From Candidatus Thorarchaeota archaeon (GTDB lineage: Archaea; Asgardarchaeota; Thorarchaeia; Thorarchaeales; Thorarchaeaceae), in NCBI GenBank assembly GCA_016839605.1, contig JAEOTX010000043.1, positions 1-34,472 on the forward strand: DNA of 34,472 bases, read 5' to 3'. The position numbers and the translations under genes are program-made. The first letter of the stretch is position 1; the number at the start of each line of letters is the position of its first letter. The notes under the pieces were generated by a model that searched no databases, had not been told where the DNA came from, and worked only from the letters and a program-made list of their open reading frames with translations. Below, piece after piece: positions 2,707 to 30,333 of the stretch.

Positions 2707-3906
2707 TCATTCCATGTAGCTTAGCACTTTGACCAGAGTCTTTGATGCGAAATCTACAGGAACTGGCAGTCTACATCTAATCAAATGCTTCAGATATCTG
2801 GGTCCAGCTAAGCGCATACACTGGTCGGTTATTATGTCGGAGGGCATAACCTGGTCGGCAATCCTAAGAATTCTGAGGGCAGCATACAGCTCCTTCCCTA
2901 TCTCCTCCCTCCATGTTTCCTCATAGACTGCAAGCGAAACCCCATCTTTCAAATGACTGACGACGGCTTCTCCAGCTATTTCACCCCCAACTAATGCTGT
3001 GGGAATGCCTCCACCATTGGAGGCCATGACATGACCTGCCGCATCCCCGACAAGAACAGCATTTTCTGAAAACGTTCTATCCACAGGCCCGCCAACAGGA
3101 ATGATGGCTCCAACTCGAGAAACGATGTTTGATTTCTTGGTGCGTGGGGATACAAGTGGATGAAACTGAATGAATCTTCGAAGATACTCCTTCAGCGGCA
3201 CATCCGGGACTCCGAAAAGTCGTCGCATGCCAAAGCCAATGTTGGCTGTGTCATCACCCTTGGGAATAATCCATGCATACCCACCTGGAGCAACTTGTTT
3301 CCCAAAGTACATCTCTGTGGTCTTCGAGTCGCATTCTATCTCAGTGACGACATAGTTTAGAGAAGGACAGAGGTCTCTTCCAGGGTTGTGATAGTGATTG
3401 CCCATTGACTTGGATATGAGAGAGCTTGGTCCATCAGCACCTATCACTACACGGGCATTCATCTCTGCCTTTTTACCCGCTTGCCTCACAATGAGCCTGT
3501 TCGATTTTGATCTCTCAATCACTGTCGAATCCAGCATTATCTTAGCGCCTGCATCCTCAGCTTGATTTGCAATACGCTGGTCAAAATTCGTTCTGTCAAT
3601 AACATGAGCATCAAGTTTGAAATAGAACTCGTTATTCAAAGGAGAAGCGAGCATGAGTCTGCTGGTCCGATTAGTGATGAGCCTATTCGGGATTCTGACA
3701 AGACGTGATGCTCTTGAGGAGTCACGCAAAAGGTCCTGCATCTCTCTGGAAGTAGGCAAGAACTCACCACAATGGATTGGAACTCCTATCTCTCTCCTTC
3801 TGTCAACTACCAGTGTCTTAAAGCCTGCAGCTGCAACCACTCTAGCTGCTGTGCAACCTGCAGGACCTGCACCTACGACAATGACATCATAGGAGTTCTC
3901 AGCCAT
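2707..3906 (-). CDS. geranylgeranyl reductase family flavoprotein (DGGGPL reductase / MenJ-like)
   Basis: YDVIVVGAGPAG, CGE, DR..FD, IGADG, PGGYAWIIP, LVGDAAG, NGGGI. Start at MAENSY (3906). Confidence 0.9.
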   Translation of the reverse strand: MAENSYDVIVVGAGPAGCTAARVVAAAGFKTLVVDRRREIGVPIHCGEFLPTSREMQDLLRDSSRASRLVRIPNRLITNRTSRLMLASPLNNEFYFKLDAHVIDRTNFDQRIANQAEDAGAKIMLDSTVIERSKSNRLIVRQAGKKAEMNARVVIGADGPSSLISKSMGNHYHNPGRDLCPSLNYVVTEIECDSKTTEMYFGKQVAPGGYAWIIPKGDDTANIGFGMRRLFGVPDVPLKEYLRRFIQFHPLVSPRTKKSNIVSRVGAIIPVGGPVDRTFSENAVLVGDAAGHVMASNGGGIPTALVGGEIAGEAVVSHLKDGVSLAVYEETWREEIGKELYAALRILRIADQVMPSDIITDQCMRLAGPRYLKHLIRCRLPVPVDFASKTLVKVLSYME

Positions 3907-3978
3907 AACATAGGGCGCATCCGTCAGACTAAAAAAAGAGTTGGTTGCTCCCACAATGACCCGTGTGAGGCTCTCCAG

Positions 3979-4653
3979 ATGATATCGATACAAGTTGAAG
4001 GACTTACCAGACGCTACGGATACAGAGTCGCTCTAAATGACATATCGTTCGATGTCCCAGTCGGTGGTGTTCATGCCCTATTCGGGAACAACGGTGCAGG
4101 GAAGACAACGCTCATGCGTATCATATCAACACTCCTGCAGCCCCACGCTGGAAAGGTGGCAGTCCTTGGATTTGATACGAAAGAAGACCCCATAGAAGTC
4201 AGAAAGAGGATTGGTGTTGTCGGAGATAAGCCGCTCCTGTATGGCGAGTTGACTGGTAGGGAGAATCTGAATTTCTATTCAGACCTTTACGATCTAGAGA
4301 GTTATACAGCTAGTGCCAGCATAGAAGACCTAGCTGAACAATTCGACGTCAAACGTTGGTTAGATGAACCAACAAAGATACTCTCCACGGGACTGAGGAA
4401 GAGATTCGATATAATCAGAAGCTTGCTACATAGTCCTGACTTGTTCTTACTCGACGAACCATTCTCAGGGCTCGACAAAGACTCCACTCAGGTGTTCAGA
4501 GACTACATTGAAGAAAAACGACAAGACAGAACCGCCATTGTAACTACACACAACTTGTCATTGGGATCGGAGATATGTGATGATTTCATCACGCTGAGAA
4601 AAGGTGAGATTGTAGGCCAAGGGCCAATTTCAGAGTTTGATGGAAACATTTGA
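3979..4653 (+). CDS. ccmA: heme exporter ABC ATPase CcmA
   Basis: Walker A GNNGAGKTT, signature LSTG, Walker B LLDEP, H-loop TTH. Directly upstream of ccmB/C. ATG 3979 follows GTGAGG. Confidence 0.85.
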   Translation: MISIQVEGLTRRYGYRVALNDISFDVPVGGVHALFGNNGAGKTTLMRIISTLLQPHAGKVAVLGFDTKEDPIEVRKRIGVVGDKPLLYGELTGRENLNFYSDLYDLESYTASASIEDLAEQFDVKRWLDEPTKILSTGLRKRFDIIRSLLHSPDLFLLDEPFSGLDKDSTQVFRDYIEEKRQDRTAIVTTHNLSLGSEICDDFITLRKGEIVGQGPISEFDGNI

Positions 4654-4663
4654 GGTGAATGAA

Positions 4664-5386
4664 ATGGGTTCTGGTCTATCATATGCACTTGCAATTGCCA
4701 AGAAAGATCTAGTCACTCAGATGAGGAAGCGATTCGAAGCATTCTCTATGTTCCTGTTCGCGATTATTGCAGTCTTTGTATTGGGTCTTGTTCTGAGTTC
4801 TGCCACCTTTATTGTGCCAGATCCAGAGACAAGACTAATTGTCATGACCGAGATTGGGGCTGGAATGCTGTGGGTAGTAGTGTTTTTCACAGGCATGTTC
4901 GGATTCTCCCCGGTCTTCATCTCAGAGTCTGAAACTGGCACATTGAAGGGATTATCTCTCGCACCCATACCAGCTTGGTCAGTATACCTTGGAAAGGTGA
5001 TCTACGGGTTCATTCTCATGGGTCTGGTCGAGCTGTTCCTGGTACCAATCTCCATGGGACTTCTGGGCTTCACTTTTGCAGCTGACGTGTCACCCATTTT
5101 CATACTTGCAACGTTCTGCCTGGGGACATTAGACTTAGCAGCTGTTGGGGCGATGGCATCAGCTCTGACAATGCCAGCTGAGTCCAAAGCCACGGTCTAT
5201 CCTATAGTGTATTTCCCAACTGCTACTACTGCGCTCATCCTTTTAGTTGAAATCACGAGAATGTTGGCTATCGGAATTCCTTTAGTTGGACCAGGAATCG
5301 TTGATCTATTGATTATCCTTTCAGGACATGTGTTTGCAATGGTAACACTCTCAGCCACAGTGTTCCATTTCACACTTACATCTTGA
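4664..5386 (+). CDS. ccmB: heme exporter permease CcmB
   Basis: AIAKKDL start, LW..F..F..E.E.GTL.GL.LAP, YLGK, 6 TM helices. ATG 4664 follows GAGGTGA. Confidence 0.88.
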   Translation: MGSGLSYALAIAKKDLVTQMRKRFEAFSMFLFAIIAVFVLGLVLSSATFIVPDPETRLIVMTEIGAGMLWVVVFFTGMFGFSPVFISESETGTLKGLSLAPIPAWSVYLGKVIYGFILMGLVELFLVPISMGLLGFTFAADVSPIFILATFCLGTLDLAAVGAMASALTMPAESKATVYPIVYFPTATTALILLVEITRMLAIGIPLVGPGIVDLLIILSGHVFAMVTLSATVFHFTLTS

Positions 5387-5457
5387 AACCATAGGAGAAG
5401 CATAAGGTTCATATTGACTTCAATTATCGAAACGAGCCCAGCAAGGGATGTGAAGAA

Positions 5458-6129
5458 GTGAACACAAAACGGATGGTTCTCTATATCCTCTCACTGATAG
5501 TATCTTTCGTCTATCTCTATATGGTATGGATTTTCGCACCGCCGGAGTTGAACCTTGGGGAAAGGATTAGGATCTTTTTCCAGCACGTGGCTCCAGCCTT
5601 GATAGGCTATCTGGCATTTGGAGTCACTCTGGTTGCGGGAGTAATGTATCTCTGGAAGCAAGACCTAAGATACGATTTGATTGGAGCAGCATCCATCAAG
5701 ATCGGACTGGTCTTCACAACAATTACCTTGTTAAGTGGAATGATCTGGGCTAACGCCAGCTGGGGTGTATACTGGAATTGGGACCCCAGAGAAACGACTA
5801 CACTCATCTTGTGGATCGCATACGCATGTCTAATTGCCTATCGTGCGTCAGTAAATGACAGAGATGTCAGAGCGCAATATGGATCCGTCTTTGGAATCAT
5901 TGCGTTTCCTGCAGTCATTCTTAGTTATATTTCAATCCGCATTTGGGAAACCCTACATCCCATCGTAATTACTGGCGAGGGTCTTCAGATGGGCCCAGAG
6001 CACGGCATGACGCTAATGGTCAGCCTAATTGCTGTCGGTCTTGTCTATCTGCTGATACTTGATCTCACATATCGAATCGATTCGGTTGCTGAAAGACTGA
6101 TGGAGCTTAGAATGCAGAGGAGTGGATAG
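5458..6129 (+). CDS. ccmC: heme exporter / cytochrome c biogenesis protein CcmC
   Basis: WWD motif WGVYWNWDPRET with flanking His residues (FQHVA, TLHP). Confidence 0.93.
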   Translation: MNTKRMVLYILSLIVSFVYLYMVWIFAPPELNLGERIRIFFQHVAPALIGYLAFGVTLVAGVMYLWKQDLRYDLIGAASIKIGLVFTTITLLSGMIWANASWGVYWNWDPRETTTLILWIAYACLIAYRASVNDRDVRAQYGSVFGIIAFPAVILSYISIRIWETLHPIVITGEGLQMGPEHGMTLMVSLIAVGLVYLLILDLTYRIDSVAERLMELRMQRSG

Positions 6130-6517
6130 TATGCAGTCACCGGACATAATTCTCTCAAATGAACTCTTCACAGTTTCAGTAATACTTTGGGTAGGTACCT
6201 TCACACTACTGTTCTGGCTCTTCATTCGGATGCATAGTCTTGACAAGGCAATTAAAACACTAGCACTGGCAGAGAATCAGGAGTTGAACTCTCAGTCAAT
6301 GTCTAACAAGATTGTTGCTTATGTCGCATTAATCTTGGAACTGATCGGTGCTGCTATCCTCTTGTTAGGGCTTATCGCATGGGTTCCAATCCCGCTTTTC
6401 CCTATGTCAATTGTTATTTGGGTCGGGGTCTTCATTATGCTGCTGTGGCAAATGCTAGGCGTATCTTCTCTTGAAGACTCTCTGGCTACGCTGTCCTTGG
6501 AATCATTTCAGGAGTGA
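6122..6517 (+). CDS. CcmD-like membrane protein with two tandem CcmD-like repeats
   Basis: Lies between ccmC and ccmE. Two copies of S..(I/L)WVG.F..L.W......SL....TL, resembling the CcmD family. Confidence 0.6.
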   Translation: MDSMQSPDIILSNELFTVSVILWVGTFTLLFWLFIRMHSLDKAIKTLALAENQELNSQSMSNKIVAYVALILELIGAAILLLGLIAWVPIPLFPMSIVIWVGVFIMLLWQMLGVSSLEDSLATLSLESFQE

Positions 6518-6520
6518 GCA

Positions 6521-6919
6521 TTGATGAAGAAGAAGACAAGAATGATGTTAATTGCTGGTGTCTTAGTAGTGGTCGTAGGGCTGGTCTCATATGCAATGCT
6601 CAATCTATTTGTTGATCCATACATCAGCGTTGACGCGGTGGTGGACAATCCTGATGCGTACAGAGGTAGAGTCATTCAGGTTAAAGGCACACTCCAACCA
6701 GGATCGATCTCTATCAATCCTGGAAACGTGACACTAGTGTTGGAGGGTAACAACTCAACTATCCTTGTAATAGTAGACACCGACCTTCCTTCGTTGACAG
6801 ACGGCCAAGAGATGGCAGCCATAGGTGTACTTGAAGATGGGGAGAATTTAGCCATCCGAGCCTCACAGATACTCACTCAGTGTTCAAGTAAATATACAGC
6901 TGTGACAACAACAGACTAA
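6521..6919 (+). CDS. ccmE: heme chaperone CcmE, Cys-type (System I*)
   Basis: N-terminal TM helix, OB-fold-like body (VKG....GSI), C-terminal 'ILTQCSSKY' = CxxxY instead of HxxxY. Confidence 0.9.
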   Translation: MMKKKTRMMLIAGVLVVVVGLVSYAMLNLFVDPYISVDAVVDNPDAYRGRVIQVKGTLQPGSISINPGNVTLVLEGNNSTILVIVDTDLPSLTDGQEMAAIGVLEDGENLAIRASQILTQCSSKYTAVTTTD

Positions 6920-7687: not shown

Positions 7688-9757
7688 TCATTCGTTCTTA
7701 GCTGATGCAGGAATCTCTTCCTCTTTCTGTTCGTCTTCTTGTCCATAGAGGTCTTCCGTTTTCGCCTTCAGAGACTTTCTGAAATCGGAGAACTCCATGG
7801 CACTCAATGGCAGCAACGCCATTATCATCAGAAAAGTGCCAAGCCAGACAAAAGACACTAGTGGAAGAATCTTCGCTGAAAGGTCAACGGTATAGGTATC
7901 TGGTCCAAGCTGGTTGAAAGTCCGAATTGATACGAACACATCTCGTAGGGCGGAACTCTGCACGTATACATCCTGTGTCACTTGTTGCCATTGCGGATTC
8001 CCTTTGATTACTATGACCCCAAGCCAAGCAGAACTTCCTTCCGTCACTTGTACTAAAACACGCAGTTCGAAGTCATATTGATTCACCCAATGAATCAGAG
8101 ATATCTCGGCTACTCCGACAACAATGCCTGAATCGCCCAGTTCCGCGGAGTCCCCATTCAGATATGTGTTGGTCTGATCGATAACCACATTCTCACTAGA
8201 AAAGACTCCAAGCAACAGAACCAAGAGACCTAGATGGAGCATAAGACGTCCCATACGTCTCATTGTAAAGGCACCACTCTCTCTTCCTGCAATGGTCCTG
8301 GCGAACGCCACCACGAGGTATGCCACTCCAAAAACAGCAGCAGGAATCAATGCATTAGCTGGCCAGTAATGTGTCGGTAGCGCTTGGCCAGTGGTGACAG
8401 TCAGTATCGCAAGGACACCACCAACTCCAAGGAGGACTAGAACCAGAATCGACTTCAGTTTAGCCCGCAGAATCGTGCTCCTCATGCAATAAAATGCCGA
8501 TACAACTAGGAGCAAAGACCCTGCATAGAAACCAGCTCGAAAGAACTCAATTCCTATAGATACCATGCTTTCGGTGAAACCAACTGGGTCGATGATTGCT
8601 TGAACAAGATTGAGCGCCGCGGGAAGGACAACACCCGAGACTGAGGTTGTTAGAACAACGAGAATTCCAATCAGTGCAATCTTGATTGAGAAATCCCTGA
8701 GATTCGATAGCGCGAAGAATTTCCAGCCTTCATCATCCTCATCGTCAGACATGTCTACATATCCTGCACGAACTGTTAGCACAGTCGCCAATACGAAGTT
8801 GAACAGCACAGTAACAAGCATTGTCCAGCTGACAAGAGTAATGGAGAATCCGTGTACTGAGTTTAGAACTCCGCTTCTAGTAACCCATGTTGCATATATC
8901 ACGGTCACATATGCAAAGACCAGAAACGAGTCCCTAAGGACATCATTGTTCCTGAAAATAGCCTTTGCATGGAAATAAGCGGTGAGAAGCAACCAAGGCA
9001 CGAGCGAAGTCGTTTCCACAGGATCCCATGCCCAGTACCCACCCCATCCAAGGACAATGTACGCCCAGTAGGCTCCAATAGCTATACCCAGCGAAAGAAT
9101 GAGCCAGGATGCGACTGTCATGAACCGAGTCAGGGACTCCAATATGGGAATTGGTTCGGCATTGCGTTCCTCTGAACGTACAGTAAAGCCAGCAAGCTTG
9201 ACTGAGAATGGAATCACTGCAATGGCATATGCTATGAACACAATTGGTGGATGTATGACGTTCCAAATCGTGCTCAGTAGAGGATTTAGCCCAAGTCCAT
9301 CAGGAGGCAATGCACCGAGGTGCGGCCTGAAAGGATTAGATGCCAACGCATTGGCAGCAATCAAGATTGTCTGCAATGCAAGAATTACTGCGCCTCTATA
9401 GACTATTGTGTCCTCCTCATATCCTCGAACTGCTATTCTGTAAGTCATCAATAGAAGAAATGAGATGGCAGTCCAAAAGATCAACGAGCCTGATTGTCCC
9501 GCCCAGAGTGAAGACACCTTGAGCCACCAGGGCGCAGTCGAATTCGTTGTAAGAAACACGTATTCGTACCCAAACTGGTTCCCAAAGATAAGGGCACCCA
9601 TATACACGACTGAGCCTAACGCTGCCAGTGTGCCTATGGAGATCATCATCATTGAGATAGTATCATAGTTGCTAATTCTAGGTCCCAAAAGCAGGATGGC
9701 CATGTCGATAATTCCAGCGCCAACTGCTACTATTAGTAAAATTGTTCCAATGTCCAT
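7688..9757 (-). CDS. ccmF: cytochrome c synthetase (heme lyase) CcmF
   Basis: LWAGQSGSL, GLNPLL, IHPP, WWD motif WAYIVLGWGGYWAWDPVE, AYFH, TRSG...SVH.F, LHLG, P.VSFVWLG; all four canonical His positions present. Confidence 0.95.
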   Translation of the reverse strand: MDIGTILLIVAVGAGIIDMAILLLGPRISNYDTISMMMISIGTLAALGSVVYMGALIFGNQFGYEYVFLTTNSTAPWWLKVSSLWAGQSGSLIFWTAISFLLLMTYRIAVRGYEEDTIVYRGAVILALQTILIAANALASNPFRPHLGALPPDGLGLNPLLSTIWNVIHPPIVFIAYAIAVIPFSVKLAGFTVRSEERNAEPIPILESLTRFMTVASWLILSLGIAIGAYWAYIVLGWGGYWAWDPVETTSLVPWLLLTAYFHAKAIFRNNDVLRDSFLVFAYVTVIYATWVTRSGVLNSVHGFSITLVSWTMLVTVLFNFVLATVLTVRAGYVDMSDDEDDEGWKFFALSNLRDFSIKIALIGILVVLTTSVSGVVLPAALNLVQAIIDPVGFTESMVSIGIEFFRAGFYAGSLLLVVSAFYCMRSTILRAKLKSILVLVLLGVGGVLAILTVTTGQALPTHYWPANALIPAAVFGVAYLVVAFARTIAGRESGAFTMRRMGRLMLHLGLLVLLLGVFSSENVVIDQTNTYLNGDSAELGDSGIVVGVAEISLIHWVNQYDFELRVLVQVTEGSSAWLGVIVIKGNPQWQQVTQDVYVQSSALRDVFVSIRTFNQLGPDTYTVDLSAKILPLVSFVWLGTFLMIMALLPLSAMEFSDFRKSLKAKTEDLYGQEDEQKEEEIPASAKNE

Positions 9758-12146: not shown

Positions 12147-13655
12147 CTAGCGGCGTCTGCCAACTAGAATACCTAGGACCAAACCAACGACGATACCGCC
12201 AACGCTGCCCCCAATCAAGAGAAGTGTGTCACCAGCCGGTGGTGGTGGTGTACCAGTCACAGTGTTTGTGACTGTCACAGTGACAGTGACCGTTGGGCCA
12301 GTGTCCGTGTTCTCATAGAAGTAGGCTTTAGCATCAACTAGATCTACGAAGGCTGCATTGAGCTCTTCAAAGATCATGTGAGGATAGTGGAAGCCCATTG
12401 ATCTGTCAGCCTCGTAGAGGTGAACAACGTCCTCGACCTCTTCAATGATATCGGCAACGTGGTTCGCGACAGCGTGATCGGCTCCTTCAGTAGCGTTGTA
12501 GGCATCAATTATTGCCTGTAGAGCAGTGGCCTCGGTGTGAATCTCATGAGTGAGTGCCTCAAAGGCATCCTCAATCATTTCGAGTTGTCCAAGTGCCCAT
12601 TCTTCTGCTCCTTCCGCATCATGGCATTCCTCCTGACCACAAGCGATGTCAGGCTTGACAACGAATGTGTGGTTCATGAATGGATCGCCACTCGCAACGG
12701 TAAGGTCATATCCATGACAGTCAGTGCATTCAACGCCAGCCAAGTTGTGTGGACCACCAAGCCAGACGGTGTACATCGGATGATGATCACCTACGTGGCA
12801 GACACCACAAAGCTCGGTTGCGTTCACTGCCCTGATGTAGGCAGGTGAACCGTCCTCCACCCAGCTCGAGTGAACTGCGTGACATGCCGGACATGAGATC
12901 GAGGTGTATGGACCATCTACTGGAAATGCTCCAGAGCTCAATCTCGTACCGTTTACAGCGGGGGATGATGTGGCTAGTTCGCCAGGGTTCTGATGCTCGA
13001 TAAAGGCCTCAGTGGCTTGGCAGTGCATACAATATGTCGCTGCGTGGTCACTAGACCTTAGATCGGTCAAAGAATTAGCATGTACGGATCTGTTCCAAAC
13101 GCCAAACTGCTGTGGATGATCGCTCAGAAGGTCACCAGAGTGGCAAGTTGTACCACAGGTGGCACCTGAGTAGTCGACCCACTCAGCAGCACTGATGTTG
13201 TGACATGAGAAACAGTTCACACCAAGGAAATCGTAAGATCCATCCGTAGCGTTGTAACCGGTTGTGTGACATTCTACACAGTACGTGTCATTGAATAGGT
13301 TGTCTTGCCCAACTGTATTGTTGTAGGCATTGAATCCCATTTCAATTTCACCTATAACTATGTGACCGCTTGTCGCGTTCCACCAAGCCGCTGTGGCGTG
13401 GCCTGTCATTGACCAATTACCGTACCTGTCTCCATGACATGGAGCTGCTCCATCACAGCTTGCGGGGTCATCGCCCCAGCCGGGCTGTGCTAGCAGAGCC
13501 TCATGCGTATCCCTGTCGGACGTACCAACCAAAGTGATTGGTATGCCGGATCCCGTTGGTCCTAGGAGAATAGCGAACCCAATCAAACAGAGGAAGAGGT
13601 AATAACCTGCAACCATTCGCTTGTTGACTTCTGGAACCTCTTTATAATATACCAT
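12147..13655 (-). CDS. surface-anchored multiheme (up to 9) c-type cytochrome, NrfA/HAO/OcwA-like fold
   Basis: Five CxxCH motifs plus CX5CH, CX3CH, CX4CH and CxxCQ; C-terminal helical bundle with 'DRSMGFHYP'; N-terminal hydrophobic signal; Thr/Val linker, TM helix and RRR. Start uncertain (13655 or 13616). Confidence 0.92.
   Translation of the reverse strand: MVYYKEVPEVNKRMVAGYYLFLCLIGFAILLGPTGSGIPITLVGTSDRDTHEALLAQPGWGDDPASCDGAAPCHGDRYGNWSMTGHATAAWWNATSGHIVIGEIEMGFNAYNNTVGQDNLFNDTYCVECHTTGYNATDGSYDFLGVNCFSCHNISAAEWVDYSGATCGTTCHSGDLLSDHPQQFGVWNRSVHANSLTDLRSSDHAATYCMHCQATEAFIEHQNPGELATSSPAVNGTRLSSGAFPVDGPYTSISCPACHAVHSSWVEDGSPAYIRAVNATELCGVCHVGDHHPMYTVWLGGPHNLAGVECTDCHGYDLTVASGDPFMNHTFVVKPDIACGQEECHDAEGAEEWALGQLEMIEDAFEALTHEIHTEATALQAIIDAYNATEGADHAVANHVADIIEEVEDVVHLYEADRSMGFHYPHMIFEELNAAFVDLVDAKAYFYENTDTGPTVTVTVTVTNTVTGTPPPPAGDTLLLIGGSVGGIVVGLVLGILVGRRR
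13641..13648 (-). promoter_or_regulatory. TATA-like box for cytochrome gene (would favour a leaderless start at 13616)
   Basis: TTATAAA on the minus strand about 25 nt upstream of ATG 13616. Confidence 0.35.
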
Positions 13656-14053
13656 ATTTGAGATTCTCCATTCTCCATGGATTATTGTAACTTCGAACAC
13701 GTCTAGCATAAAAAGTTGTTCGTTATCGAAGATATAGTGAAGTCGATTTTATTACGAATTGTAATTCATTTAGAATGTATACAGTATGTAATGAAAACAA
13801 TCCGATAGCAAAGTTATCGAAATCAGAATATCTCATCCGTTTAAGTATTGGAACTTTGATTTCATCCTTACAAGTTATAGCCATTGATATGTGTCGATGT
13901 CAACATTGACGCGAGCCGATGACAAATCAGCGTGAAATCAGTATCATCTCATGAGCAGAGAATCATATATCCATCAATGATTCGAACCAGGTCTGTGCAG
14001 CGGTGCCGTTATTAGTCAGAAGCTGAGAATGAATTCTGCAGTAGGGACGCGAA

Positions 14054-16811: not shown

Positions 16812-17264
16812 ATGAACTCGGATGAAGTGTTTGATGCAATTTCTCACCCGATGAGAGTAGAAATCCTGAAGGAATTGGCAAATGGTCCCAAAGGCTTTGC
16901 GGATCTGAAGCGGAAGCTGAAGATAAGCAGCAGCGGACTCTTGGATTTCCACCTGAAGAAGATGGCAAGTATAGTAACCACTAATGCAGATGGGTCATAC
17001 ATTCTGAATGATCGAGGATTTGCTGCAGTGCAAGCGGTCGATGTTGTAGCGAGGTATGGATGGCAGCGAAGGTCCTACTTCATCAACGTCGGCATGTATA
17101 TCGTGATGAATGTATATCTATTCCTCACTATCCAACATTGGGCGGTCCTCATTGTGTTTGGAATATGGACCGCATGGATTGTATTCTATAGCTACTGGAC
17201 GTTCATCAAACGCAGAGTACGATTGAGAAACAACGGCGAGTCTAAGACAAGACCGGAGAGATAA
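16812..17264 (+). CDS. ArsR-type winged-helix regulator with two C-terminal TM helices
   Basis: FDAISHP.R.EIL..L...P..F.DL......SS..L.FHLKKM, then hydrophobic segments. Confidence 0.85.
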   Translation: MNSDEVFDAISHPMRVEILKELANGPKGFADLKRKLKISSSGLLDFHLKKMASIVTTNADGSYILNDRGFAAVQAVDVVARYGWQRRSYFINVGMYIVMNVYLFLTIQHWAVLIVFGIWTAWIVFYSYWTFIKRRVRLRNNGESKTRPER

Positions 17265-17268
17265 TGAA

Positions 17269-18048
17269 ATGTCAGAAGCAGTAAAGATTGTGAATTTAGT
17301 GAAATCATATGGCGACCTCGTCGCTGTAAACGATGTGTCATTCGAAGTACAGGAAGGCGAGATATTCGGAATCCTTGGACCTAATGGTGCAGGGAAGACT
17401 ACAGCCATCAGAGTCCTAATGGGACTATTGGATGCAGATTCAGGCACGGCTGAGGTCTTCGGAACCAGTTCTAGTGAAGATCCTATTGGTGTCAAGCGTC
17501 TTGTGGGATATGTTCCTGAGGAACAACAACTCTACGAATCCCTAACACCACGGGAGATTTTTGAGTTCATAGCATCGGTAAGAGAGCTGCCCGAAGAGAA
17601 AACGAGCAAACGAGTTGCTGAGTTTGTGCATGCACTCGACTTTGAGAAGTACTACGATGCGATGGTCGTGACTTTGTCGCAGGGCAACAAGCAGAAAGCA
17701 TTACTAATTTCGGCGTTGATTCACAGACCTAAGCTCCTGATTCTAGACGAGCCATTCTCCGGGCTTGATGTCCGTACAGCTTCAATCATGAAAGACGTAA
17801 TCAAGATTCATGCCGAGAATGGCGGCTCGGTCTTGTTGAGCACACATATCATGGAAGTCGCTGAGGCTATGTGCGACCGTGTGGGAATTCTTGATGAGGG
17901 CAAGCTAGTTGCAGTAGGCACACTTGAAGAGCTTCGAGATGTTTCAAAGAGAGAGGGAGCGACTCTGGAAAGAGTATTCTTGGCTCTAACTGAACAAGAG
18001 GATGAAGTACGCGAGGGCATTGACCAGCTTAGGGAGGCCCTTGCATAG
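17269..18048 (+). CDS. ABC-2 type exporter ATP-binding protein
   Basis: GPNGAGKTT, LSQG, ILDEP, STH, TLE.VFL. Confidence 0.93.
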   Translation: MSEAVKIVNLVKSYGDLVAVNDVSFEVQEGEIFGILGPNGAGKTTAIRVLMGLLDADSGTAEVFGTSSSEDPIGVKRLVGYVPEEQQLYESLTPREIFEFIASVRELPEEKTSKRVAEFVHALDFEKYYDAMVVTLSQGNKQKALLISALIHRPKLLILDEPFSGLDVRTASIMKDVIKIHAENGGSVLLSTHIMEVAEAMCDRVGILDEGKLVAVGTLEELRDVSKREGATLERVFLALTEQEDEVREGIDQLREALA

Positions 18049-19691
18049 TGAAATTCTCTGAGCGATGGAAACTTGCAGGAATCATATCAGCAGAGGTGAG
18101 GTTCAAAGGCTATCTAGAGATGAATCCATCGAACCTTGCGAGGGTGAAAGAGAATCCACAGAAAATCGCTCGAAGTATCAAGTCTAATAGTCGATTCAGC
18201 ACTTTCATAACAACTGCTCTCATATTCTCACTGGCCATCCTAACTGCAGTTATGGCCTTTGTAGATGACACCATTGGTGTTCCCCAGACACGTTTGGCCG
18301 TGGGACTCTCAATCTTCCTTTTTCTCAGCTTTGTATTGCTGATATTTCTCAATCTGTCTGTGACTACTGGCTTCTTCACTGCGGATGTCATAAGTTTCCC
18401 TGCAACACTCCCATTAAGCAAAAGGAATCTCGATGAATTATCACTGCTTGCGTTCATTAGAGTATTCATCGCACCGACAATATTGATCCTCACTATCTTC
18501 CCTATCATCACGCTTCTTGCAATAGGACCAGGTCCTGCTCTTGTGGCATTCGCGGGATGTGCTGCGACAGTCTCCCTCTCGATAGGTGCATTGACAAAGC
18601 TATCCATTTGGTTTCGAAAGCAGTCACTTCAAGTCAACGGCTCAAAAATGAATACAGTGGTCAGAGTGGCAGCATCACTGGGACTTGCAATTGGAATGGT
18701 CGTAGCATTTAGCATGGGTAGCTGGTTACCTTCTTTGATTCATTTCATTGCTGACCTTTCAACTGGAATGGGCAATCAGGGATCCTCATTTCTTGCCTTG
18801 TTATTCCCATTCTCGTTTGGATTCCTGGCTTCTGCAATTCAGTTTGGTCTTGAGCTTCCCTTTACAACCATTCTTGCGGCTCTAGGTGCCTCTGCTCTGT
18901 ATGCGGTGCTAGCAATCATGTCCTATCACGGAACAGGCAATGCACTCCGAAGAATCACAGTTGGAGGGGTGCCGACTAAGAGGACTTTGGAGCTGCGTGA
19001 CATCACTCTGAAGACGAAGACGGTTCTCAGGTCAATCATCAATAAAGACCTCAAACTTGCAACTCGAAACATTGGTTCTTCGTTTGTGTTCATTATCCCC
19101 CTCTTCCTTGCTGTGTTCCTCTATCCCATGATGGCAGGGTGGTCTACTAGTGGGCCTTTACGAAGTCTTACATCTCTCGTATCAATAGAGTACGGCAATT
19201 TCTTTGCGGGGATAACAATCATTTCTGTCATGATGTTCGACACACAGGGGGCTTCAATTCAGTCAGGACTTCCAATCGAATCAAGGAAGGTATTGAATGC
19301 CAAAATAGCAATTGCCATGATTCCCTATGTCGGATCAATGATACTGGTCTCCATTCTCCTGTCAATGTTTCCGTTGACATCACCATTGATACCCCTCATG
19401 CCACTGATTCAGATTCCATGTGGGTATACCGTTTCAATAGCTGTAGGTGCCGTCACATATTGGAAACGAGGTGGTGGTCGGGCGGTATCCATCAGTGTAG
19501 CAGCAGATTCTAAGATGAGCTTCCTTGCTGCAATTATTGGAGCAGTAATAGGGATAGTACCGCTAGTAGGCTATGGAGTAGTCATGATTCTCACTGGGAA
19601 TCACATCGTGAGTCTGGCCACTCAGTTCATGGTAATGATCTTGGAGCTAATCTTGATTCGAAGTCAAGTGCCCAAGCTATTGAAGGATTGA
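18048..19691 (+). CDS. ABC-2 type exporter permease (about 12 TM helices, duplicated)
   Basis: 1-nt overlap with ATPase (TAGTG); LP motifs; 'KDLKLATRN' begins the second half. Confidence 0.8.
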   Translation: MKFSERWKLAGIISAEVRFKGYLEMNPSNLARVKENPQKIARSIKSNSRFSTFITTALIFSLAILTAVMAFVDDTIGVPQTRLAVGLSIFLFLSFVLLIFLNLSVTTGFFTADVISFPATLPLSKRNLDELSLLAFIRVFIAPTILILTIFPIITLLAIGPGPALVAFAGCAATVSLSIGALTKLSIWFRKQSLQVNGSKMNTVVRVAASLGLAIGMVVAFSMGSWLPSLIHFIADLSTGMGNQGSSFLALLFPFSFGFLASAIQFGLELPFTTILAALGASALYAVLAIMSYHGTGNALRRITVGGVPTKRTLELRDITLKTKTVLRSIINKDLKLATRNIGSSFVFIIPLFLAVFLYPMMAGWSTSGPLRSLTSLVSIEYGNFFAGITIISVMMFDTQGASIQSGLPIESRKVLNAKIAIAMIPYVGSMILVSILLSMFPLTSPLIPLMPLIQIPCGYTVSIAVGAVTYWKRGGGRAVSISVAADSKMSFLAAIIGAVIGIVPLVGYGVVMILTGNHIVSLATQFMVMILELILIRSQVPKLLKD

Positions 19692-25713: not shown

Positions 25714-27540
25714 ATGGGGATCTTCAGCGGTTTGGATAAGAATAGGCAACTCCTTCTTCTCTGTCTCATTCTGATAGGATCATCTGCTCTGCTGGGACAT
25801 GCAATACAAAATGATTTTGGAGCAATAGATGTTGATTATATCAGAATTGTAGATGAGAGTGGTTTCGCAGTAACTGGAAAACTATATCGTCCGGTGACAG
25901 CAACTGAAGATAATCCCGCGCCGGGAGTCTTGCTGCTACATGGAATGAACAACGATAAGGACACTGAAGGTCCTGCTGCATTGGAGCTCGCCAGAAGGGG
26001 CATTGTTGCTTTAGCTTTGGATCAGATAAGTCACGGTGACTCGGATCGCATTATTGATATCATGGGATACTTCACTGGAGCTTTCGACTCCACACTTGGT
26101 GGAAATGCAGCATATCAGTGGTTGAAATCCCTTCCATATGTTGATGAAGCGCAAACTGGTTTGGTGGGTCATAGTATGGGTGCCGGTACTGCGGCTGCAA
26201 TCGCGGCAACTAACCCGGACCATCGAGCTATCGTGATTCAAGCAGATGGTCCGTATAACCTCACAACTCACAGTTACATGAACAACTATCTAGCTGTATG
26301 GTCTATCTATGAGGAATTATTCACAACTCAGCCAAGGTCGGAGTTTCTTCAAGATAGTCTTGAATTGATAGCGTATAATGAGAATCTCACCTCTGCGAGT
26401 AATGCTGAAGCTGACTTCACATACGGAAGCTTCACCGATGGTTCAGCGCACAGATATGCACAGTGTCCGTGTACTCACCCGGGAGCAACGTGGAACTCCA
26501 AGGGAGTAAGTGAAACCACTGCGTGGATGCTTCAGGCACTTATGGGAATGACTGAGTCTGAGGCTACGACTCTCTCTGCTGAGTCAACACAGACCTATAT
26601 GATCAGAGAAGGTGCCACATTATTGGCATTGATTGTGTCAGTCATCTCATTAATCCCATTAGCCAGCATTATCTTGGAGATACCATATTTCAGCAAGATA
26701 GCTAGACCTTTGCCGCAGAAATTCCCGACACAGGGGAGAAAGTGGTGGGGCTATGCAATCTTGAACTCACTAATTGGCGGGATTACTTTCCTTTTCCTGC
26801 CTTCGCTAGGTTTACTGGGGGGAGCTGTACTAGGTGCGTTTGCACCAATCTTTCTCTTGGTGACGGGAAATGGCCTGCTACTCTGGTTTCTTGTCAATGC
26901 CCTCATTGCATGGATTTTCTACAAGATGTGGTTCAGAAAAGCCTCGGTCGGAAATGAAGGGATCACCCATGCAGATGTTGGTCGTCTTGAAACCATAAGG
27001 GATCCCGAGAGTCGCGATGTGATTTTCCGAACTGTTGTACTCTCGGTTGCCCTAATCGCGTATTTGTATATCCTTGTGGGAGCGTCACAGCAATTCCTGG
27101 CAATCGAGTTCAGGTATATGTGGCCAGTCCTTAAGATATTCACACCAGAGAAGTTTGGTCAGTTCATAGTTAACATTCTCCCAGTGTTCCCATTCTTCTT
27201 GATCAATGGGGGAGTGTATGCATATGGCATGATGAGGCTTCCTGAATCAGATTCGCCATTGAAGACGCAGATGATTTGGTGGATCAAGATTGTCTTTGCC
27301 ATGGAATCTACACTTCTGGTGTTGATTCTTGTCAACTACCTCCCAATGTTCCTATTTGGAACCGGACCTTTGCTCTTGATGGGACTCTATGGAATTTTCC
27401 TCATGGCATACTTGCCGATTTTTGCAGGAATCTTCTTCATCATGACAGCGTTCTATGCCAAGACAGGAAGAATCTACTTGGGTTCCATAATGGCCACACT
27501 CTTGGTAGTTTGGATCATGACTGCGGGAATGCTAATCTAA
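25714..27540 (+). CDS. membrane-bound alpha/beta hydrolase with multi-TM C-terminal domain
   Basis: N-terminal TM helix, LLHG, GHSMG nucleophile elbow, late His (THPG), about 8 C-terminal TM helices. Confidence 0.85.
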   Translation: MGIFSGLDKNRQLLLLCLILIGSSALLGHAIQNDFGAIDVDYIRIVDESGFAVTGKLYRPVTATEDNPAPGVLLLHGMNNDKDTEGPAALELARRGIVALALDQISHGDSDRIIDIMGYFTGAFDSTLGGNAAYQWLKSLPYVDEAQTGLVGHSMGAGTAAAIAATNPDHRAIVIQADGPYNLTTHSYMNNYLAVWSIYEELFTTQPRSEFLQDSLELIAYNENLTSASNAEADFTYGSFTDGSAHRYAQCPCTHPGATWNSKGVSETTAWMLQALMGMTESEATTLSAESTQTYMIREGATLLALIVSVISLIPLASIILEIPYFSKIARPLPQKFPTQGRKWWGYAILNSLIGGITFLFLPSLGLLGGAVLGAFAPIFLLVTGNGLLLWFLVNALIAWIFYKMWFRKASVGNEGITHADVGRLETIRDPESRDVIFRTVVLSVALIAYLYILVGASQQFLAIEFRYMWPVLKIFTPEKFGQFIVNILPVFPFFLINGGVYAYGMMRLPESDSPLKTQMIWWIKIVFAMESTLLVLILVNYLPMFLFGTGPLLLMGLYGIFLMAYLPIFAGIFFIMTAFYAKTGRIYLGSIMATLLVVWIMTAGMLI

Positions 27541-27620: not shown

Positions 27621-27737
27621 TTAGTGACATTGTGTGCACAATGCTAGAGGTACTTGACCAGTCATAAGATAGTGAAAAGCTAGAAAGCCGATAAACCCAA
27701 TGACTAAGACGAGCAGGATTATTACACCCCTTCTCAA
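27621..27737 (-). CDS. 38-aa single-TM peptide ending in CxxCH (candidate micro c-type cytochrome)
   Basis: TTG at 27737 with AGGAG 9 nt upstream and TTATAAAA about 45 nt upstream. Product MRRGVIILLVLVIGFIGFLAFHYLMTGQVPLALCTQCH*; fills an otherwise empty gap. Confidence 0.6.
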   Translation of the reverse strand: MRRGVIILLVLVIGFIGFLAFHYLMTGQVPLALCTQCH

Positions 27738-27779
27738 TTGTCTCAGCTCCTGACCTGCCGTCGCAAATCTTCTTCTGGA

Positions 27780-27787
27780 TTTTATAA
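27780..27787 (-). promoter_or_regulatory. TATA box for the 38-aa CxxCH ORF
   Basis: TTATAAAA on the minus strand. Confidence 0.5.
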
Positions 27788-27873
27788 CTTGCTGCTGTCC
27801 TTTACCTTCAATGATGCACTCATTAATTAGGCATTCACTTGTTTCAGCGCAAGTGGTTGCGCCGATTTGCTTG

Positions 27874-27880
27874 TTTATAA
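27874..27880 (+). promoter_or_regulatory. TATA box for ABC/peptidase operon
   Basis: TTTATAA about 32 nt upstream of the ABC ATPase start. Confidence 0.45.
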
Positions 27881-27911
27881 CTCTGTAAGGAAGAGTTGAC
27901 ATGGCGACTCA

Positions 27912-28685
27912 TTGGTGTCAGATGGTATTCATATTCAGACACAGGGCCTTTCCAAGGATTTTGGCTCTGTTATTGCGCTGAGAGACCTCGACCTTGCTGT
28001 TCGGAAGGGTAGTGTCTTTGGCTACCTTGGACCAAATGGAGCAGGGAAGACAACAACTGTCAGAATTCTTTCCGGTCTTTTGAAGCCGACTTCAGGGACT
28101 GCAACAGTCTGTGGTTTTGATGTGCATTCTGAACGAAATAGTATCAAGAGAGTCACAGGACTTCTGCCCGAATCACCGGGACTTTACTCGAAGTTATCTG
28201 CTGTGGAGTTTCTAGAGTTCATTGGAGCCTTGAACAATACGGGCGGAGAATCACTCCGTAGACGGATTGATAGTCTTCTGGGAATCCTAGGACTTGAAGG
28301 AAGACAGAATGACCTCTTAGAGAGTTACAGCAGCGGTATGAAACAGAAGGTGCTTGTTGCATCGACTATGCTTCATGAACCAGAACTAGTGTTCCTTGAT
28401 GAACCTACTTCAAGACTGGATCCAGCCGCAAGTGTCCTCGTCAAAGAAATCATCCTTGCTATGGCAAAGGAAACTGATACAACATTCTTCATTTGCACCC
28501 ACATGACAGATTTCGCTGAAGATGTATGTGAGGTCATTGGGATATTGAATGAGGGAATCTTAACGACCCTAGGTGCACCGAATGATATCATCGAACAGAC
28601 AGGCGGCAATGATCTCGAAGATGCTTACCTCAAGATAGTGGGCGGTGGAATCGATCGAGAAACCCTCTTGAGCTGGAGGCATTGA
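27912..28685 (+). CDS. ABC-2 type exporter ATP-binding protein
   Basis: GPNGAGKTT, YSSG, FLDEP, CTH, LEDAYL. Confidence 0.93.
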   Translation: MVSDGIHIQTQGLSKDFGSVIALRDLDLAVRKGSVFGYLGPNGAGKTTTVRILSGLLKPTSGTATVCGFDVHSERNSIKRVTGLLPESPGLYSKLSAVEFLEFIGALNNTGGESLRRRIDSLLGILGLEGRQNDLLESYSSGMKQKVLVASTMLHEPELVFLDEPTSRLDPAASVLVKEIILAMAKETDTTFFICTHMTDFAEDVCEVIGILNEGILTTLGAPNDIIEQTGGNDLEDAYLKIVGGGIDRETLLSWRH

Positions 28686-28686
28686 C

Positions 28687-30333
28687 TTGGTCAGGGTCTG
28701 GGCGGCCATAGCGAAAGCGGAGTTTCTTGTTCGAACTGTCAAACTCCACAAATCTCGCAAGATTCTGTATCCGCTCGCTTTTGGGATTTCACTCGCATTC
28801 GGATTATTTCTTGTTCCACGACTAGTAGGTTTCTTCTTCACAGAAGTTGGCGCAGCGTTCAAAGCAATGCTTGCGACATCTTTCCCAGGTATGCTAAGGA
28901 CGATAATGCTTGCTGTTTGGATGTTCATTCTGATTATTCCAATCTCGAACAGTCTTGAGAACGTCAAGATGGGACAGTGGGAGATCCTCTTCAGCAACAA
29001 TGTAAAGACGAGAGACCTTCTTTTCGGAACATTTGTGGGAAGAATCCCAGTCTATGGCATCTTTGTCATTGCATTGGCCCCAATAGTGGTGTCCCCCTTT
29101 GTCTTTGCGTACAATGTCTCAATACTTGGCCAGCTATTGATGTATCTAGTGATCTTCGTATTTGCAATTGTGACCATCTGGCTTTCGACAGTGTTCAGCA
29201 CAGCCATTCATGCAAAGATTGGTTCTTCCCCTCGGGGGGATGATATTGGCAAAGCATTGAGTTGGGGCCTTGTTCCACTAGTTGCGATCCCTGCTATGGG
29301 TTCAATGTATTGGACGTCTAGTGTTGTGGCCCTGCTGGACTTGGAGATCTCAATGATTCTTCCATCAACTTGGTGTGCAGATATTCTAACTTGGATTGCG
29401 ATGTACACAGGGACGCTTAGGCCATCATCAGTTATGAATCTTGAACTCTATTGGTTTGCAGTCAGTCCCATCGTGGATGTTTTGATACTAGGGATATTTA
29501 CAATGGTCGTGTTCTATGTTGGATTCAAGAGTGCAGATCGATATTTTGCATATAGTGTTAGCCAGGGAAGTCAGAAAGTTCTTAGAGCAGGGCCAGAGAA
29601 TCTATTCATCAGGGGGATTCGTAGGGCCTTCGGAGAGTATTTCGGGACTATTGTTGCTACCTCCTTCAAAGATTTTACAAGGAAACTGCAGAATATAGCA
29701 AAGTTGTCATATGGACTGTTTCTAGCTATCCTCATGCCTTTGCTCATTGGCTTCGGCCCATTTACAACCATGGTTGATGATCCGATTTTCGTTCCCGTCA
29801 TGTCATCATTGACGTTGGGAATGATATCAGGAATATTTTCGGGTGTAATATTTGGAGGTGTTGGACTTCTTGATAGTCGTGATCAGCTTTGGATCCTGAA
29901 GAGCACACCCAGAGGAGCTCAAAAGTTCATTGTAGCTAGAGTGATATCATATATGATGGTGGGAATTCCCTATGCTCTCTTTCCTGCAATATTCACAGGA
30001 GTCTTACTCAATTTCACATTGAGCGATACCCTATTGATGTGCATTTTTGTTTATTCGATAGTACTAGGAGGAATCTTCGTTGGTGTTGGGATTACAGCAA
30101 GTAATCCTTCATTTGAGGACACGTCGAGTGGTGCATTCATCATCAATCAAATTGCGACAATTCTCATCCTAATGATCTTGATAATTGTGTCAATCATTCA
30201 GGGTGTGATAGTCGCGATCACTCAAGGTGTCTTTGGTGCATCTATGCTCCTGTCCAGCATTCTCACACCGATAATTGGGCTAGTGATACTGATGCTTGGA
30301 ATGATTAGACTAAACTTCTTGGAGGCGGACTGA
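28687..30333 (+). CDS. ABC-2 type exporter permease (about 12 TM helices)
   Basis: AIAKAEF start, 'KDFTR' at the second half, 'LWILKSTP'; 1-nt gap to ATPase. Confidence 0.8.
   Translation: MVRVWAAIAKAEFLVRTVKLHKSRKILYPLAFGISLAFGLFLVPRLVGFFFTEVGAAFKAMLATSFPGMLRTIMLAVWMFILIIPISNSLENVKMGQWEILFSNNVKTRDLLFGTFVGRIPVYGIFVIALAPIVVSPFVFAYNVSILGQLLMYLVIFVFAIVTIWLSTVFSTAIHAKIGSSPRGDDIGKALSWGLVPLVAIPAMGSMYWTSSVVALLDLEISMILPSTWCADILTWIAMYTGTLRPSSVMNLELYWFAVSPIVDVLILGIFTMVVFYVGFKSADRYFAYSVSQGSQKVLRAGPENLFIRGIRRAFGEYFGTIVATSFKDFTRKLQNIAKLSYGLFLAILMPLLIGFGPFTTMVDDPIFVPVMSSLTLGMISGIFSGVIFGGVGLLDSRDQLWILKSTPRGAQKFIVARVISYMMVGIPYALFPAIFTGVLLNFTLSDTLLMCIFVYSIVLGGIFVGVGITASNPSFEDTSSGAFIINQIATILILMILIIVSIIQGVIVAITQGVFGASMLLSSILTPIIGLVILMLGMIRLNFLEAD

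Follow-up and report, generated by a model that had tools for sequence, protein, structure and literature searches.

A conserved 38-residue membrane micro-protein ending in Cys-x-x-Cys-His, a candidate single-haem c-type cytochrome of Thorarchaeota

We analysed a 34,472-nt stretch of DNA from a Candidatus Thorarchaeota archaeon (assembly GCA_016839605.1, contig JAEOTX010000043.1; this whole stretch is called the window below) and a micro-protein gene on its minus strand at 27621..27737. Thorarchaeota belong to the Asgard archaea. The gene begins with a TTG codon (27737-27735), runs for 38 codons and ends with a TAA stop (27623-27621). Translation of positions 27624-27737 of the minus strand gave a peptide of 38 residues, in which a basic N-terminus is followed by about 20 aliphatic residues and then by a tail that ends in Cys-Thr-Gln-Cys-His, with the pattern H-x11-CxxCH followed by the stop codon; a loop that includes Pro30 starts at Gly27. 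A Shine-Dalgarno-like AGGAG (27747..27751, minus strand) precedes the TTG with a 9-nt spacer. A TATA-like box, TTATAAAA (27780..27787, minus strand), lies 42 nt 5' of the start codon in the divergent intergenic region and is the presumed promoter of the peptide gene. All of these elements had been pointed out in an earlier note on the window, and all were present on the minus strand at these positions. At locus L024, which encodes another family member, a TATA-like box is similarly placed (-43), and AGGAGG or GGGGG elements precede the ATG in the closest orthologues.

In a scan of the 3.08-Mb genome, 15 stop-to-stop segments of at least 25 residues ended in CxxCH plus at most three residues, and the peptide from the window was the only one in which a stretch resembling a membrane helix preceded the motif. 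The peptide is more than a chance open reading frame (ORF).

Because the peptide frame is open upstream, the length of the product had to be settled. The mechanical ORF (P0001) is 93 residues long, and its ATG, at 27902, is only about 10 nt away from where a divergent ATP-binding cassette (ABC) ATPase gene begins. The protein collection entry for this contig is the 93-residue product, indicating that the gene caller picked the long start. When the 93-residue form was used as a query against 41 related genomes, matches began no earlier than about residue 37. In relatives, the stretch 5' of the peptide start codon was interrupted by stop codons, and no homologue of the first 55 residues was found in related genomes or in the protein database. 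We therefore rejected the 93-residue ORF as the gene; its 5' extension (27738..27902, minus strand) is not conserved and is most likely a divergent promoter and 5' untranslated region common to the ABC ATPase gene, rather than coding sequence.

The short form, in contrast, behaved as a conserved unit. The ATG of the orthologues aligned exactly with the TTG in the window, and stop-to-stop frames were 38 codons in genome G008, 39 in G013 and 42-45 in many others. Flanking DNA on both sides could not be aligned between the window and the closest orthologues, so that conservation is limited to the 114 coding bases. Ratios of non-synonymous to synonymous substitution (dN/dS), calculated by the Nei-Gojobori method, were 0.07-0.31 in 11 pairs, with dS saturated in 3 further pairs, which indicates purifying selection on a protein rather than on an RNA element. 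An RNA element was rejected on the same coding pattern of substitution and because Rfam returned nothing. The earlier note had proposed conservation in related genomes and dN/dS as checks, and both came out in favour of the gene. We are all but certain that the gene is real and that the 38-residue form is its product. The note had also expected gene callers to miss such a gene or choose a wrong start: the start was indeed wrong here, making this an example of micro-protein mis-annotation, but in other Thorarchaeota metagenome-assembled genomes (MAGs) the gene was called, as a 38-46-residue 'hypothetical protein'.

Genome scans together with two protein-database searches yielded at least 31 different intact sequences, 38-46 residues long, which form a family with no existing annotation. 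Searched with a HMMER profile, 1.84 billion representative proteins gave six matches, all of 38-45 residues, and no longer relative or fused form lay within reach of HMMER. Family members in the database (for example MFW9833791.1, MFW9932455.1 and MFW9921104.1) are named 'hypothetical protein' and come from Candidatus Thorarchaeota archaeon MAGs. Neither Pfam nor NCBIfam holds a model for the family, and a literature search found no description of such a peptide. The minus-strand gene at 27621-27737 is thus a genuine gene for a 38-residue bitopic micro-protein of a Thorarchaeota-specific family.

Conservation is strongest in the external tail (His, Gly, Pro, Cys and the final Cys-His) and not in the helix sequence. 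In a 28-row alignment, His22, Pro30, Cys37 and His38 were invariant, and Phe18, Gly27 and Cys34 were at least 90% conserved. The CxxCH expected of a c-type cytochrome is thus conserved across the 28 aligned members, and the two positions within it varied (TQ, TD, TN, SN, SD, SE, ST, FQ, WT and others), as is typical of haem c sites. Across the 31 intact sequences, the stop codon came 0-3 residues after the motif His, or 7 residues after it in one case. Three sequence subtypes could be told apart, with the peptide from the window belonging to the G-Q-[LV]-P-L-x-L-C-T-x-C-H type.

The exceptions to this pattern were informative. One orthologue has a single Cys in the sequence R-S-E-C-H, in which Arg replaces the first Cys and Cys-His is kept, and a paralogue (G013:C192:2508-2618, minus strand; L066) has Cys-Ser-Gly-Ser-Gly-Cys-His, a C-x4-CH arrangement, in place of CxxCH. 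To judge from their residues, these variants appear to keep the logic of a haem site. Decayed copies have lost precisely the residues that are conserved elsewhere, or have acquired internal stops, with endings such as C-x-x-C-P, C-x-x-S-H and C-x-x-G-H, or a change of His22 to Asn combined with the ending Cys-Arg. As a separate observation, G005:C2:97005-97505 (L052) and G015:C45:2701-2805 (L027) both carry a TGA at the same conserved Trp codon of a type-2 peptide and diverge after it, with a frameshift in one and a His to Leu change in the other. The pattern suggests a pseudogene that these two congeneric genomes received from their common ancestor.

We considered two longer sources for the peptide and rejected both. 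A fragment of a longer or split cytochrome gene, which the earlier note had named as a possible refutation, found no support: none of 25 loci had a CxxCH-bearing continuation 3' of the stop, and no longer relatives were found. An origin from the N-terminus of the multihaem cytochrome encoded in the window was discarded since BLASTP matches between the two were at the level of the motif only.

The N-terminus carries a net charge of +2 or +3 in most members and the tail 0 or -1, which, by the positive-inside rule, predicts an N-in/C-out topology. AlphaFold2 run on the alignment placed a helix at residues 2-26, followed by a loop and a helical turn at residues 34-36, with a mean predicted local distance difference test (pLDDT) score of 88.5. 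Foldseek gave no informative match for this model, and a sequence-profile search of the PDB gave chance helix matches only. The proposal in the earlier note that a basic N-terminus and a single membrane helix would place CxxCH outside is borne out by these predictions; the motif is thus predicted to lie outside the cytoplasmic membrane, as expected of a c-type cytochrome.

A c-type cytochrome also requires a maturation system, and the window encodes one. The plus-strand genes ccmA, ccmB, ccmC, an unassigned 131-residue ORF and ccmE span 3772..6919 (Pfam ABC_tran, CcmB, Cytochrom_C_asm and CcmE), and a CcmF-like haem lyase gene lies on the minus strand at 7688..9757 (PF01578, 5.8e-28). CcmA, B, C, E and F are therefore all encoded within the window, as the earlier note had recognized. 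No ccmG or ccmH was found among the Pfam matches of the window. CcmE (6521-6919, plus strand) has Cys-Ser-Ser-Lys-Tyr at residues 121-125, a C-x3-Y rather than a His-x3-Tyr motif. The Cys-x3-Tyr form of CcmE is that of the archaeal System I*, which works without CcmH (PMC3601427). Just two ORFs of the whole genome contain two or more CxxCH motifs. One of them is the multihaem cytochrome c of the window (12147..13709, minus strand), which has a C-terminal membrane tether, is the main Ccm substrate of this genome apart from the candidate peptide and is a possible redox partner of the peptide.

To see where the peptide occurs, a profile scan was run on 301 genomes of the phylum-level group, with the genome of the window (G000) left out of both of the following counts. 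The peptide was found in 21 of the 76 other sampled genomes of the same family and in none of the 224 genomes that represented 29 other Asgard families. Among 86 genomes of the family, it was restricted to genera g1, g5, g7 and g23. PF01578 (CcmC/F) was found in these four genera and in g25 but in none of the 11 other genera, and the multihaem cytochrome showed the same distribution by genus. PF01578 was present in 22/25 peptide-positive compared to 23/61 peptide-negative genomes, counts that are not phylogenetically independent. By genus the comparison is 4/5 versus 0/11 (Fisher p ~0.003), and here too the genera are not independent. The Ccm system and the peptide are thus co-distributed at the genus level.

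Together, these findings suggest that the peptide is a membrane-anchored micro-cytochrome with a single haem c, matured by the archaeal Ccm system, a reading to which we give somewhat better than even odds. Haem attachment, its ligation and a role in electron relay are inferred, and the proposed scheme is as follows. The basic N-terminus would stay in the cytoplasm, the helix of about 20 residues would span the membrane, and the last 12-16 residues would lie on its outer face. There, the System I* machinery encoded in the window would attach one haem c to Cys34 and Cys37, with His38 as the proximal ligand. On the distal side, the likely ligand would be the invariant His22 from the outer end of the helix, giving a bis-His, low-spin haem. 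The earlier note had offered both His22 and Met25 as sixth ligands; His22 is credible, but position 25 is not conserved (M, L, V, I, F, S or Y in the alignments). The product would be a haem held at the membrane surface, an arrangement equivalent to the helix and first haem of NapC, NirT, NrfH or CymA reduced to one haem. Its most likely role would be that of a small accessory electron-transfer subunit or relay, passing electrons from the membrane (the quinol pool or a membrane partner) to external cytochromes. No NapC/NirT, NrfD, cytochrome b or Ni_hydr_CYTB protein was found in the genome, which is 80% complete, leaving the route from the membrane to the external cytochrome open.

The likeness to NapC/NirT proteins was also picked up by profile. 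The best Pfam match of the family was to the N-terminal region of PF03264 (NapC/NirT; profile positions 8-43), which 6 of 17 members matched with E values of 10 or less (0.028 at best). When the genome was scanned in all six frames with PF03264, the peptide was the only signal (12.9 bits, E 0.13). Like NapC, NirT, NrfH and CymA, it has an N-terminal basic stretch, one membrane helix and a linker of about 11-12 residues before CxxCH. In NrfH and CymA, the first haem, at the membrane surface, is the quinol-facing haem. Unlike NapC, NirT and NrfH, the peptide has one haem motif instead of four, is 38 rather than about 150-200 residues long, terminates directly behind the His and lacks a Met following CxxCH. 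It shares with PF03264 the helix followed by a first CxxCH, whereas its score falls short of the family's threshold and the four motifs are missing. We do not regard it as a member, and the resemblance, which is architectural, may be convergent.

Artificial constructs provide a second comparison. According to PMC6962350 (citing Braun et al. 2005), System I can add haem to a 'haem tag' made of a flexible CxxCH at the C-terminus, and microperoxidases are mentioned as having been made with E. coli System I (Braun and Thony-Meyer 2004, cited in PMC3601427). The peptide resembles these in having a short, unstructured C-terminal CxxCH outside the membrane and a nearby His able to act as sixth ligand. 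The engineered tags, however, are artificial carrier fusions, whereas the peptide is natural, conserved and encoded by a free-standing gene with its own anchor. To tell true monohaem cytochromes of archaea from the numerous false CxxCH matches, Kletzin et al. 2015 used as criteria an N-terminal membrane helix, a conserved CxxCH and ccm genes in the genome (PMC4429474). The peptide has all of these and, as those criteria also ask, belongs to no other family. It differs from the candidates as presented there in that it has no recognisable cytochrome fold or domain and no globular part, and its family is Asgard; the consulted text of that survey does not describe such a peptide (PMC4429474).

Respiratory and photosynthetic complexes have small single-helix subunits, among them PetG, PetL, PetM, PetN, CcoQ and CydX, which lack a cofactor-binding motif. 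The peptide is like them in its size class (30-50 residues), its one membrane helix and its accessory, often dispensable character, and one subtype is coupled translationally to a large membrane protein, as such subunits can be. It is unlike them in that its conserved part is the external His...Cys-x-x-Cys-His tail.

By sequence, the peptide is a good candidate for the smallest natural c-type cytochrome. A fuller version of the proposal, in which this smallest cytochrome is a minimal NapC/CymA-like relay with one bis-His haem, taking electrons from the quinol pool or a membrane partner to the tethered surface multihaem cytochrome, is speculative and, as a whole, doubtful. A 315-residue His-rich membrane protein described below is one example of such a partner, and no recognisable quinol dehydrogenase is encoded in the genome. 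If haem is attached, the peptide would lower the size limit of natural cytochromes c to about 16 external residues plus an anchor, and System I* would accept a motif at the very C-terminus in vivo. The peptide would then be a naturally evolved template for the membrane-anchored haem peptides that protein designers build by hand. For Asgard biology, it is a candidate for the connection, so far missing, from the membrane to the external multihaem cytochrome of Thorarchaeota.

Several observations weigh against this interpretation. The co-occurrence with Ccm may reflect shared ancestry within a single clade, and 23 Ccm-positive genomes have no peptide. Conversely, three peptide-positive genomes lack PF01578. 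One of these (G064, 85% complete) has an intact copy and the other two have altered copies, ending in Cys-Pro rather than Cys-His in G071 and carrying an internal stop in G089; the MAGs are incomplete. Altered or interrupted copies were found in about 8/26 genomes. This frequent decay, together with the absence of the peptide from many Ccm-positive genomes, suggests that its role is accessory and dispensable. The PF03264 match is sub-threshold (14.3 bits and E 0.034 for L017, against a gathering cut-off of 24.1) and may reflect nothing beyond 'helix plus CxxCH'. A tail of 12-16 residues provides little protein to shield a haem. A single CxxCH in an archaeal proteome is mostly a false positive, 4347 of 4410 according to PMC4429474. 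Finally, the peptide gene shows no conserved linkage to ccm or cytochrome genes, and its neighbours differ even within a genus.

Three genomic settings were recognized. In setting A, mainly in genus g5, the peptide gene lies between a divergent gene for a small zinc-ribbon membrane protein with a GDPD gene on one side and a downstream gene for a 311-residue protein, which has no Pfam match, on the other. A strongly conserved TATA element, CTGCTTTATAATTTGTGG, lies about 75 nt upstream of the peptide ATG in this setting (L016-L031, genus g5), in the intergenic region shared with the divergent gene for the zinc-ribbon protein of about 100 residues. It is probably a shared or bidirectional archaeal promoter. 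In setting B (seven genomes from three genera), the peptide is of a second subtype and its gene overlaps the stop codon of a gene for a 315-residue polytopic membrane protein, with a TrmB-type regulator divergent. In setting C, the genus of the window itself, the neighbours differ in every genome.

The 315-residue protein (for example at L023:540-1484:+ in G082, at L014:528-1478:+, and in the reverse complement of L013) has the conserved His motifs H-G-H-I-Y and A-G-H-A-M-A-Q-H and no Pfam or NCBIfam match. It was found in 27/86 genomes, all of them from Ccm-bearing genera (g1, g5, g7 and g25, but not g23, the fifth such genus), with identities between genomes of 57-93%, mostly 70-78%. It could be an undescribed haem-handling or quinol-interacting membrane protein. 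An intact peptide gene lies 3' of it in 7 of the 27 genomes, and decayed copies do so in G005 and G015. We rejected it as an obligatory partner of the peptide, since it is absent from the 80%-complete G000 assembly and most of its copies have no peptide downstream.

An alternative to the micro-cytochrome, which we consider unlikely, is that the peptide is a real membrane micro-protein whose CxxCH and His22 form a non-haem metal site (Zn, Cu or Fe, possibly across a dimer) or a redox-active CxxC pair. The conservation of two Cys and two His fits such a site. System I* works without CcmH, neither ccmG nor ccmH is among the Pfam matches of the window, and the peptide is confined to Ccm-bearing genera; one possible role would be that of a thiol-reducing or assembly helper for cytochrome maturation. 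An invariant His right after the second Cys is, however, the haem c signature and not that of CcmH or thioredoxin-like proteins. The motif of CcmH is Cys-x-x-Cys-Gln. The orthologue with R-x-x-C-H and the paralogue with C-x4-CH also fit haem c, while they fit a CxxC pair or a fixed metal knuckle poorly. Since many Ccm-positive genomes lack it, the peptide is not a core maturation factor.

It is also conceivable, though improbable, that the peptide is a small membrane-active or regulatory peptide, either type I toxin-like or an accessory subunit, whose function would reside in the helix, with the motif needed for folding or for binding a partner and not for haem. Its patchy distribution, varying context within a genus, up to two copies per genome and frequent pseudogenes would suit this, and the subtype overlapping the stop codon of the 315-residue protein gene suggests a small-subunit role. 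Conservation of the tail in preference to the helix argues otherwise, as does the finding that most genomes with the 315-residue protein have no peptide downstream. In addition, no conserved antisense or flanking element was seen among the loci of the window's own genus, and Rfam returned nothing relevant.

We regard as very improbable an exported precursor that is cut, either by an ABC and C39-like system or by a signal or prepilin peptidase, to release a haem peptide or microperoxidase or to form a pilin-like haem filament. The gene in the window is divergent from adjoining genes for an ABC ATPase, a permease and a Peptidase_C39_2 protein, and the nearly invariant Gly27 after the helix is preceded by a small residue, with Gly-Gly there in some members. 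Yet this ABC/C39 neighbourhood was found in the window only. In G011, the peptide gene is followed by PEMT-like and enoyl-CoA hydratase genes, whereas in the window the ABC ATPase, the 548-residue permease and the Peptidase_C39_2 protein genes lie between the peptide gene and the enoyl-CoA hydratase gene. A functional unit with the ABC transporter and the C39-like peptidase was rejected, since the linkage is not conserved. Nor does the peptide resemble a bacteriocin-like or ribosomally synthesized and post-translationally modified peptide (RiPP)-like precursor: Gly-Gly occurs in only some members, and what would be the 'leader' is a membrane helix that is hydrophobic throughout, which sets it apart from double-glycine leaders. 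The residue at -3 before Gly27 is large (Leu, Met, Tyr or Phe), which misfits signal peptidase I. There is a loose fit to class III signal peptides in the N-terminus of the peptide (R-R-G, then V) and in those of its closest orthologues (R-K-S, then V), as the earlier note had remarked for the window, but the motif of a basic residue with Gly, Ala or Ser is absent from most members, which start MKKFLK, MNKLLK or MSIKK or without a basic residue. Nothing in our data indicates the polymerising pilin-like unit or released haem peptide that the note had envisaged.

A non-functional sequence, either a chance ORF or the 5'-end remnant of a lost NapC/NrfH-type or longer gene, could draw on the sub-threshold similarity to the NapC/NirT N-terminus, the many decayed copies and the longer mechanical ORF in the window, but is largely refuted by the conservation data (dN/dS of 0.07-0.31 with saturated dS, and a stop at nearly the same place after Cys-His in 31 distinct intact sequences) and by the lack of a CxxCH continuation in 25 loci and of a longer relative among 1.84 billion proteins, and we give it hardly any weight.

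Other genes of the window were noted in passing. The ABC ATPase and permease genes next to the peptide gene (27912-30333) have a paralogous module at 16812-19691; the two modules encode ATPases of 257 and 259 residues and permeases of about 547 residues that belong to no Pfam family. The module at 16812-19691 is preceded by a gene for a DUF7347/ArsR-type regulator, and that at 27912-30333 is followed by a gene for the Peptidase_C39_2 protein, of 495 residues. On the other side, convergent with the peptide gene, a plus-strand gene (25714-27540) encodes a 608-residue protein in which an alpha/beta hydrolase (S33/S15-like) at the N-terminus is fused to a long C-terminal part that is a polytopic membrane region. 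In G013 and the g5 synteny group, too, there are Hydrolase_4 genes within 1-1.5 kb of the peptide, a proximity that may be a trace of old synteny.

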